DNA of 25,850 nt from contig CAZADH010000034.1 in the NCBI GenBank assembly GCA_964483805.1, forward strand, positions 1-25,850. The letters are read 5' to 3'. The stretch's first letter is position 1, and each line of letters begins with the position of its first letter. Below, one piece after another: positions 11,615 to 12,758 of this stretch. The position numbers were made by a program, and so were the translations under genes. Source of the DNA: an uncultured bacterium (GTDB taxonomy: Bacteria; Muiribacteriota; Ozemobacteria; Ozemobacterales; Ozemobacteraceae). Under the pieces are notes generated by a model, which had not been told where the DNA came from, searched no databases, and saw nothing but the letters and a program-made list of their open reading frames with translations.

Positions 11615-12490
11615 ATGCGCAAGATGTTCTCGTTTCTCAACGACCTGGCGTTTAAGGCGACGTTTGGTGCGGAAGCGAACAAGCGACTGTTGATCGCTTT
11701 GCTCAATGCCCTGCTCGAACGCGAAGGGGAGGATCGCATCGAGTCGGTGGTGTTGCTCGATCCGTTCAACCTGCAGAAGGCCGACAATGACAAGTTGTCG
11801 GTTGTCGATGTAAAGGCGTGCGATGCGCGTGGGCGTCGTTATGCGATCGAGGTGCAACTGCGATCGCGGCCTGACTTCTGTCGGCGGTCGGTGTACTACC
11901 TGTGCCGACTGTTCGCCGATCAACTCGGCGCGGGCGAGAAGTACGATGATCTGTGTCGCGCGACGGCCATTGCCCTGATTGACTTCGTTCAGTTCAAGCA
12001 GCACAATGAGATTCAGAGCATCTTTCGGTTGCATGACCCGCTTCACCACGAGGTGCTGTCAGAAGCGCTCGAACTGCGTTTCGTCGAACTGCGCAAGGCG
12101 GCTGTATGGCCGGTTCGGCGGGCGCACACGCGTTTCGAGAAGTGGTTGCACATTCTTCGGTTCGGCACCCGTTACCCCGACCCCGATCGTCTGCCCACCG
12201 AACTGGCCGAGGAGCAGGAAATCGCTATGTCACTCAAGGAACTGCAACGCATCAACGCCGACTCGATCCTGCGCGAGCGCATGGCCGCCCGCGAGAAGTT
12301 CGAACTCGATCACTCGTCGCTGGTTGAGGCGGCACGCATCGAGGCGCGAGCCGAAGGGCGGACGGAGGGTGAAATGCAGAAAGCCGTAGAGATCGCCAAG
12401 AAGTTGCTGAAGCTGGGCTCAAACCCCGACGATGTAGTCTCGATTACGGGTCTGGCACGGGCCGAGGTTGAGAAGTTGCGAGGAGAGTGA
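11615..12490 (+). CDS. Rpn-family recombination-promoting nuclease / PD-(D/E)XK 'putative transposase' (TIGR01784 / YhgA-like) with a C-terminal DUF4351-like domain
   Basis: The ATG at 11615 has AGGAGG 7 nt upstream. The GTG-extended ORF from 11456 would start inside the upstream terminator hairpin and is rejected. The N-terminus MRKMFSFLNDLAFKATFGAEANKRLLIALLNALL matches the characteristic 'D.aFK.lFg...nk..L..fLNaiL' opening of this family. A PD-(D/E)XK core is present (LSVVDVKACDARGRRYAIEVQL). The C-terminal part EGRTEGEMQKAVEIAKKLLKLGSNPDDVVSITGLARAEVEKL resembles the RpnA-type C-terminus (..AQRLLSKGMSREDVAEMANLPLAEIDKV). Confidence 0.7.
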   Translation: MRKMFSFLNDLAFKATFGAEANKRLLIALLNALLEREGEDRIESVVLLDPFNLQKADNDKLSVVDVKACDARGRRYAIEVQLRSRPDFCRRSVYYLCRLFADQLGAGEKYDDLCRATAIALIDFVQFKQHNEIQSIFRLHDPLHHEVLSEALELRFVELRKAAVWPVRRAHTRFEKWLHILRFGTRYPDPDRLPTELAEEQEIAMSLKELQRINADSILRERMAAREKFELDHSSLVEAARIEARAEGRTEGEMQKAVEIAKKLLKLGSNPDDVVSITGLARAEVEKLRGE

Positions 12491-12758
12491 CGGCATGTCT
12501 CTGGCAGAACTGCAACGCATCAACGCCGACTCGATCCTGCGTGAGCGCATGGCCGCCCGCGAGAAGTTCGAACTCGATCACTCGTCGCTGGTTGAGGCGG
12601 CACGCATCGAGGCGCGAGCCGAAGGGCGGACGGAGGGTGAAATGCAGAAAGCCGTAGAGATCGCCAAGAAGTTGCTGAAGCTGGGCTCAAACCCCGACGA
12701 TGTAGTCTCGATTACGGGTCTGGCACGGGCCGAGGTTGAGAAATTGCGAGGAGAGTGA
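12227..12758 (+). repeat. Near-perfect tandem direct duplication (2 x 264 bp, 4-bp spacer) of the 3' end of the Rpn gene
   Basis: Copy 1 (12227-12490) and copy 2 (12495-12758) both encode MSL(K/A)ELQRINADSILRERMAAREKFELDHSSLVEAARIEARAEGRTEGEMQKAVEIAKKLLKLGSNPDDVVSITGLARAEVEKLRGE*. I counted about 7 nucleotide differences (2 non-synonymous and about 3 synonymous substitutions). Confidence 0.85.
12495..12758 (+). CDS. Standalone 87-aa ORF made of the duplicated DUF4351-like C-terminal domain of the upstream Rpn gene. It may be a gene fragment or pseudogene, or an expressed mini-protein.
   Basis: It has its own ATG, with GAGGAGAG 9 nt upstream. The frame is intact and identical to copy 1 except for two residues. 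Confidence 0.4.
   Translation: MSLAELQRINADSILRERMAAREKFELDHSSLVEAARIEARAEGRTEGEMQKAVEIAKKLLKLGSNPDDVVSITGLARAEVEKLRGE

Follow-up and report, generated by a model that had tools for sequence, protein, structure and literature searches.

A stand-alone copy of the C-terminal domain of an Rpn-family nuclease as a probable additional antitoxin gene in an uncultured bacterium

Directly behind the stop codon of an Rpn-family nuclease gene in an uncultured bacterium lies a second copy of the 3' end of that gene, with a start codon of its own, and the question raised by this arrangement is whether the copy is a gene in its own right and what its product would do to the nuclease. The locus is found in contig CAZADH010000034.1 (assembly GCA_964483805.1), of which positions 1 to 25,850 of the forward strand were analysed (the window; all coordinates without a locus name refer to it). 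We read the locus, with a probability of about 0.7, as a toxin-antitoxin module of the RpnL/RpnS kind in which an extra antitoxin gene, of the rpnSs type, is encoded apart from the nuclease gene. Translation of the small open reading frames (ORFs), toxicity of the nuclease, its neutralisation and a role in phage defence are proposed here by analogy with homologues from Escherichia coli.

The repeat itself is plain. A repeat search gave a direct repeat of two copies (12227-12494 and 12495-12762; period 268 nt, identity 97%), and a 268-nt repeat of this identity is far beyond chance. Pairwise alignment of the ORF segments of the two copies, 264 nt each, gave 257 identical positions and exactly seven mismatches, and both reading frames are open in the ORF listing. 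Five of the seven mismatches fall within codons 2-4 (TCA CTC AAG in copy 1, TCT CTG GCA in copy 2) and produce the sole amino-acid change, K to A; the remaining two (12274, C/T; 12475, G/A) are synonymous. Copy 1 is formed by the last 88 codons, stop codon included, of the nuclease gene, and the repeat begins exactly at an in-frame internal ATG, the codon of Met205, a residue that is kept in the closest homologue (P0002). The ribosome-binding site (RBS) of copy 2 stands 9 nt before its ATG, and the same GAGGAG motif recurs at the end of copy 2 (12748-12753). The NCBI record has a gene call for the 87-aa product of copy 2 (P0010), on the same 30.7-kb contig as the nuclease. A first, sequence-only reading of this DNA had described two 264-bp copies with a 4-bp gap, about seven differences and intact frames, the second with its own ATG and a GA-rich RBS, and had explained them by a partial tandem duplication that makes the Rpn C-terminal domain an independent small ORF; these observations are confirmed, and the core of that explanation is right.

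The upstream gene encodes what looks like a catalytically competent nuclease. Its best start is the ATG at 11615, and the database gene call likewise gives 291 aa (P0001). The protein matches PF12784 PDDEXK_2 (1.6e-45; 156 bits, cutoff 27.4; profile 2-229 of 229) and TIGR01784, Rpn family recombination-promoting nuclease/putative transposase (1.3e-33; 117 bits, cutoff 52.1; profile 2-273 of 273), and was aligned to E. coli RpnA with a probability of 92% (E 6.4e-7; hhalign, profile-sequence). In the latter alignment, D10 (codon 11642-44), D65 (11807-09), E79 (11849-51), Q81 (11855-57), and R91 (11885-87) pair with RpnA D11, D63, E82, Q84, and R94, respectively; D65, E79, Q81, and R91 are invariant among the homologues in alignment A2. 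Mutation of these five RpnA residues abolished or altered activity or phenotypes (Kingston et al. 2017, PMC5350276), and the predicted competence follows from the residues aligned to them being intact. No significant Foldseek match was obtained for the N-terminal domain from the full-length model, so the assignment to the PD-(D/E)XK nucleases rests on the hidden Markov models (HMMs) and on hhalign.

The duplicated part corresponds to the domain that acts as antitoxin in E. coli. AlphaFold2 models had a mean pLDDT (predicted local distance difference test) of 81.9 for the full-length protein and of 80.8 for the 87-aa protein, the latter with helices at residues 3-62, 67-74, and 78-86, that is, one very long and two short ones, as in the C-terminal bundle of E. 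coli RpnA-S (7TH0). Among 350,542 chains of the Protein Data Bank (PDB) searched with Foldseek, 7TH0 was the best match of the 87-aa model (probability 0.98; template-modelling (TM) score normalised to the target 0.73; 37% identity), and it matched the C-terminus of the full-length model with a probability of 1.00 (TM (target) 0.78; root-mean-square deviation 0.8 A; 42% identity); a search with sequence only also picked 7TH0 (E 0.085). With HMMs, the 87-aa protein matches the C-domain and no N-domain, and it covers positions 200-273 of TIGR01784 (E 8.9e-7). The precomputed Pfam label of the repeated domain is PF27070 HTH_Rpn_C. The term 'DUF4351-like' used in the sequence-only reading is not retained: a Pfam scan at E<=1 of the 87-aa and full-length proteins gave no PF14261 match and returned only PF12784 plus a chance PriA_C match. 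Copy 2 is related most closely to the C-terminus of the rpn that precedes it, and its next relative outside the lineage is less than 50% identical, which points to a local origin.

Table 1 Features of the rpn locus in the window, with strand and basis of assignment. RBS, ribosome-binding site; HMM, hidden Markov model.
Feature	Position	Strand	Basis
AGGAGG, RBS of the full-length rpn, 6 nt before ATG 11615	11603..11608	+	sequence
Rpn-family PD-(D/E)XK nuclease gene, RpnL-type, 291 aa, presumed toxin	11615..12490	+	PF12784, TIGR01784, hhalign, AlphaFold2
Span of predicted catalytic residues D10, D65, E79, Q81, R91	11642..11887	+	hhalign to RpnA
Sigma-70-like match TTGACT-17-CACAAT inside rpn, about 220 nt before the internal ATG	11979..12007	+	consensus scan
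Candidate internal start: AGGA (12216-19), 7 nt, in-frame ATG (12227-29, Met205)	12216..12229	+	sequence
Repeat copy 1: RpnS-type C-terminal domain, codons 205-291 and stop	12227..12490	+	C-domain HMM 1.9e-23
Run of 4-aa repeats of copy 1, IEAR-AEGR-TEGE; part of the long first helix	12338..12373	+	sequence
GAGGAG, RBS of copy 2, made up by the final codons of copy 1 (cga gga gag)	12480..12485	+	sequence
Spacer cggc, 4 nt, from rpn stop to ATG of the small gene	12491..12494	+	sequence; identical at both L082 junctions
Repeat copy 2: stand-alone 87-aa gene, RpnSs type, presumed extra antitoxin	12495..12758	+	C-domain HMM 2.3e-24
4-aa repeat stretch in copy 2, same number of units as in copy 1	12606..12641	+	sequence

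Precedent for such a layout exists in the study of Zhong et al. (2023, PNAS 120:e2307382120, PMC10400941). According to it, all five of five E. coli rpn genes and one C. difficile rpn have an internal start that yields a small protein, RpnS, which forms a complex with the full-length RpnL and prevents it from inhibiting growth, inducing the SOS response and cleaving DNA in vitro; Rpn proteins are hypervariable in their number of 4-aa repeats, and RpnC-S neutralises RpnC-L only when the repeat number is the same; plasmid Rpn protects against phage. Separate downstream copies, rpnSs, are described there as well, namely ypaA (rpnE-Ss) after rpnE, and rpnC-Ss after rpnC; they have independent origins, each clustering with its own upstream gene, and they are expressed, with tagged RpnE-Ss (YpaA) detected experimentally. 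In the discussion it is speculated that RpnL itself may start the recombination by which downstream copies are created, a possibility also put forward in the sequence-only reading, where the duplication was seen as a potential footprint of the element's own activity. The arrangement in the window is therefore already described in E. coli and less novel than the sequence-only reading implied, whereas the proposal made there, that the free domain would act as a dominant-negative or regulator of the nuclease, agrees with the RpnS/RpnSs antitoxin experiments on the E. coli homologues.

Compared with rpnE-ypaA of E. coli K-12, the small ORF of the window likewise lies on the same strand directly after the rpn stop, with its own RBS; likewise starts at an internal Met of the upstream gene (Met205 here; Met244 of RpnE, where ypaA starts MTIAERLRQEG…); is, as is also rpnC-Ss, most similar to its own upstream gene, in line with a local, independent origin; and has a polymorphic 4-aa repeat region. 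It differs in the spacer (4 nt; 12 nt with AAGGAG in E. coli), in the length of the small protein (87 aa; 61 aa for YpaA), in the nucleotide identity of the copies (97%; 84% for rpnE and ypaA, with one 4-aa KLEG indel), in the equal repeat number of its two copies (one extra unit in ypaA), in an RBS contributed by the coding end of the copy before it, and in its host, a probable member of the Riflebacteria. The N-terminal family is also another one, PF12784 PDDEXK_2 in the window and PF04754 transposase_31 in E. coli rpn (according to Kingston et al.), and the locus has no PF14261/DUF4351 HMM match. E. coli K-12 ypaA (L084:7817-8002) is a pseudogene in the RefSeq annotation; downstream RpnS copies in general are probably under-annotated.

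With the RpnL/RpnS pairs more broadly, the window has in common a PD-(D/E)XK nuclease with the D/D/E-x-Q/R residues, an in-frame ATG preceded by AGGA at the start of the C-terminal domain, which on its sequence is a candidate for internal initiation, and a 4-aa repeat number that varies between alleles (the window and a sister strain, below). The geometry of this candidate start resembles that at Met244 of rpnE, at the ypaA start, and at an internal AAGGAGG-ATG of the locus L011 (below). From the candidate initiator Met to the first repeat there are about 33 residues, compared with 8-20 in the RpnS proteins studied (Zhong et al.). E. coli rpn genes have an internal promoter (same source), and the sigma-70-like match inside the window rpn (one site in the consensus scan, 0.4 expected in shuffles) might conceivably serve the small ORFs in the same way.

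The sequence of events and functions that we propose is as follows. A partial tandem duplication copied the C-terminal domain, starting exactly at the in-frame internal ATG, with the 3' coding end of the domain (…cga gga gag tga) supplying a Shine-Dalgarno sequence 9 nt before the new ATG. The 291-aa protein would be a toxic DNA endonuclease, the last 87 or so residues of which, a long helix and a bundle like a helix-turn-helix (HTH), would serve as oligomerisation domain, and it would be held inactive by small proteins binding to that domain. Such proteins may come from the internal start at 12227 and from the gene at 12495, the 87-aa protein adding to, or substituting for, any product started at 12227. 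A distance of only 4 nt from the stop to the next ATG, together with an RBS that lies inside the codons before it, suggests that the two genes are co-transcribed and possibly also coupled in translation. As the repeat number of both copies matches and their products differ in one residue, the stand-alone protein of the window should, by the published repeat rule, neutralise the nuclease.

A sister strain shares the duplication. This strain is represented by a 1,444-bp locus (L082) from an independent ENA metagenome assembly (sample ERZ795054); a further locus (L083) was not counted as independent, being 100% identical to L082 755-1444 and ending at the same base. No other close relative was found in the genome or metagenome collections searched, in which the metagenome scan gave L082 again (L086). 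Between the two strains, the nuclease genes show 12 mismatches over 612 nt of the N-terminal part (2%) and one over the 264 nt of copy 1, and there is a 1-nt indel upstream of the gene. The junction of the window, TGAcggcATGTCTCTGGCA, is also present in L082, which has the identical TGA-cggc-ATGTCTCTGGCA plus the AAA codon specific to copy 2. Copy 2 of L082 is intact and of 79 aa; it has lost IEAR and RTEG by two separate 12-nt deletions and carries about seven substitutions, in clear codons four synonymous and two non-synonymous. L082 further holds a third copy (MSLAELQRINAESIERERQAAPAK*), truncated to 24 codons, with the cggc spacer before it and GAGGAA at the position of the RBS. In L082:1007-1330, the third-copy junction, cggc-ATGTCTCT, is the same as that of copy 2, and the copy is about 22% diverged; the sequence 3' of it is unrelated to the flank in the window and has a terminator-like hairpin at its end. 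In the window, a search for remains of a third copy after 12758 gave no convincing similarity, this region being the 3' end of a convergent cyclase gene.

With the junction shared by strains that differ at 2% of sites in the N-terminal part, the duplication predates their split, and the epithet 'recent' given to it in the sequence-only reading is doubtful. The distribution of differences is uneven: between copies 1 and 2 of the window, seven of the 16 junction positions (spacer and first four codons) differ, and two of the next 252 (Fisher p = 2e-8, changes treated as independent). The third copy of L082 has one difference from the copy-2-type junction in 16 positions, and is derived from copy 2 on this ground; in the following 60 nt it departs from both other copies at 13 positions, against 0-1 differences between those two. 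The simplest reading is probably an older duplication, of which the two functional copies were homogenised by gene conversion while the third is decaying, and the near-identity of the cores of copies 1 and 2 would more likely stem from gene conversion than from recency. Alternatively, the cluster of junction differences could come from a single complex event, and the third copy could have decayed unusually fast. The CGT of copy 2 at 12541 (CGC to CGT), the only window-specific difference in the core of that copy, also occurs in L082, there in the third copy. Copy 2 may have had this codon ancestrally and lost it in L082 by overwriting, a single-site hint of gene conversion.

Recurrence was assessed with separate HMMs for the N- and C-domain at 80 loci from representative genomes of GTDB, which encode relatives of 27-40% identity. 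One of the 80, from an Alkalispirochaeta metagenome-assembled genome (MAG; L011), has a C-domain-only ORF immediately downstream. Its rpn has an in-frame AAGGAGGGCGCG-ATG (AAGGAGG-ATG), which was duplicated along with the C-domain and starts the downstream small ORF; the pair has about 68% nucleotide identity, the small ORF is intact, and the repeat region accounts for a difference of 16 aa (4 x 4) between the two. The rpn and small ORF occupy L011:1227-2536, and degenerate rpn fragments are seen at 2605-2874 and 4470-5234 of the same locus. C-domain fragments at a distance from rpn were found in L044 (Gemmataceae), L050 (a cyanobacterium), and L056; in the first two, both MAGs, C-domain-only ORFs or fragments lie kilobases from rpn (L044:10140-10743; L050:8268-8408), and in L044 part of an N-domain comes immediately after the C-domain ORF, a layout that suggests nested partial tandem duplications. 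L011, L044, and L050 come from other phyla but belong to the same PF12784 branch as the window; compared with it, the L011 pair is more diverged, and the copies in L044 and L050 are distant or fragments. Homologues carry variable EGRA/EGRT runs at the position of the 4-aa repeats.

A phmmer search with the small ORF against 1.84 billion representatives gave 401 matches at E<=1e-3; among the best 148 of these, 92 are of 130 aa or less (84 of the 92 start with Met) and 20 exceed 240 aa, and by this count stand-alone proteins of the RpnS-type domain are common. Four proteins of 207-324 aa (P0134, P0136, P0139, P0218) consist of three or four fused tandem RpnS-like domains, each with an EGRA-type run; such fusions are not mentioned in the passages of Zhong et al. 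consulted here.

Several points weigh against an additional antitoxin. The neighbourhood is one of housekeeping and signalling genes and not a defence island (H+-pyrophosphatase, TPR/peptidase protein, 5'-nucleotidase, major-vault-protein-like gene, MMPL transporter, TIM, PGK, GAPDH, RF3), which sets the locus apart from the RpnL/RpnS pairs, for which a place among defence genes is an enrichment and not a strict criterion; neither protein had a match among the PADLOC models; and the Foldseek E-values to 7TH0 (0.31 and 0.6) are not significant alone, the domain being very small. E. coli ypaA is annotated as a pseudogene. The repeat number of the downstream copy differs from that of the upstream gene in L082, L011, and E. 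coli K-12, and by the published RpnC experiment such copies would not neutralise the adjacent nuclease, so that downstream copies in general may have a role other than that of 'extra antitoxin'.

The best of the alternatives, which we nevertheless hold to be unlikely, is that copy 2 is a neutral by-product of slipped or unequal recombination, functionless and heading for decay or for loss between the 252-nt repeats. Selection on copy 2 is not measurable from the window, since the copies are too alike for purifying selection to show; the third copy of L082, with its 24-codon ORF and its 13 differences in 60 nt, is clearly decaying and demonstrates that such copies arise and rot; the pseudogene label of ypaA would fit a by-product too; and the closest homologue (L001, 58% identity) has no downstream copy. 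Against a by-product, both strains have an intact copy 2 in spite of a duplication older than their split, the RBS and ATG of this copy are conserved, its two deletions in L082 are in frame and its substitutions there are mostly synonymous (4 versus 2), the analogous downstream ORF of L011 is open at about 68% nucleotide identity, and RpnE-Ss protein was detected in E. coli (Zhong et al.).

Less probable still is a small protein that is mainly an HTH DNA-binding regulator, for example an autorepressor of rpn, and not a direct binder of the nuclease. The Pfam name of the domain, HTH_Rpn_C, would suit it, as would the Foldseek matches that follow 7TH0 (ArdK, DeoR, KorA, and the N-terminal HTH of IstA), the relatedness of the RpnS domain to HTH motifs by HHpred noted by Zhong et al., and the fact that many antitoxins both bind the toxin and repress transcription; yet the E-values of the HTH structural matches are about 1 or worse, the E. 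coli homologue forms a direct complex and inhibits cleavage in vitro without a DNA operator (Zhong et al.), and the repeat search gave no operator-like inverted repeat near the rpn start. An expansion of a single-copy region by the assembler, for which only the metagenome-type contig would speak, is very improbable, as is collapse: the copies carry copy-specific differences and a distinctive junction, assemblers tend towards collapse and not expansion of repeats, and the same junction and copy-2-specific AAA codon recur in the independent assembly of a 2%-diverged strain that is set apart by indels and a third copy as well.

With the copy taken as an additional antitoxin gene, the rpnSs arrangement is extended to the PF12784 nuclease branch and to a poorly known phylum, probably the Riflebacteria, and together with the Alkalispirochaeta example the locus shows that the duplication recurs independently, with its beginning always at the internal start codon. 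The two strains form a small natural experiment, with matched repeat numbers in the window and mismatched ones in L082. For annotation, ORFs of 60-130 aa after rpn should be called as genes and not discarded as pseudogene fragments.

A more speculative view, to which we attach a low probability, is that the downstream copies form a self-propagating cassette array that diversifies the hypervariable oligomerisation helix of the toxin. As the RBS lies inside the coding end of a copy (GAGGAG-TGA), which would be the Shine-Dalgarno sequence of the next, the unit can re-duplicate with its translation signals included, as the three copies in L082 show; through gene conversion or deletion between copies, changed repeat numbers could then reach the nuclease, or toxin and antitoxin could be matched anew. 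Exchange is hinted at by the near-identical core beside a junction different at 7/16 positions, and by the third copy, with its copy-2 junction and 22% divergence. Downstream copies drift in the number of 4-aa repeats, being equal to the upstream gene in the window (0 aa) and departing from it by 4 aa in E. coli, by 8 aa in L082, and by 16 aa in L011.

Some features of the surroundings remain to be listed. GC content dips slightly across the cassette (0.57-0.61; 0.60-0.69 in the flanks), and an Rfam search over 11000-13200 gave nothing meaningful. The PGK encoded in the window shares 72-74% identity with proteins from Candidatus Riflebacteria/Ozemobacteraceae MAGs, on which the probable phylum given above is based. 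Upstream, the major-vault-protein-like gene (8575-11388, +; shoulder PF11978, 1.9e-26; vault repeat PF17795, 3.1e-8) is followed, before the rpn cassette, by a strong intrinsic terminator (11437-11472). Downstream, and convergent with the small rpn gene, a protein of 2,121 aa with two HAMP and two adenylate/guanylate cyclase domains is encoded at 12779-19144 (-); its stop is only 20 nt from that of the small rpn gene, which leaves no room for a terminator between them.

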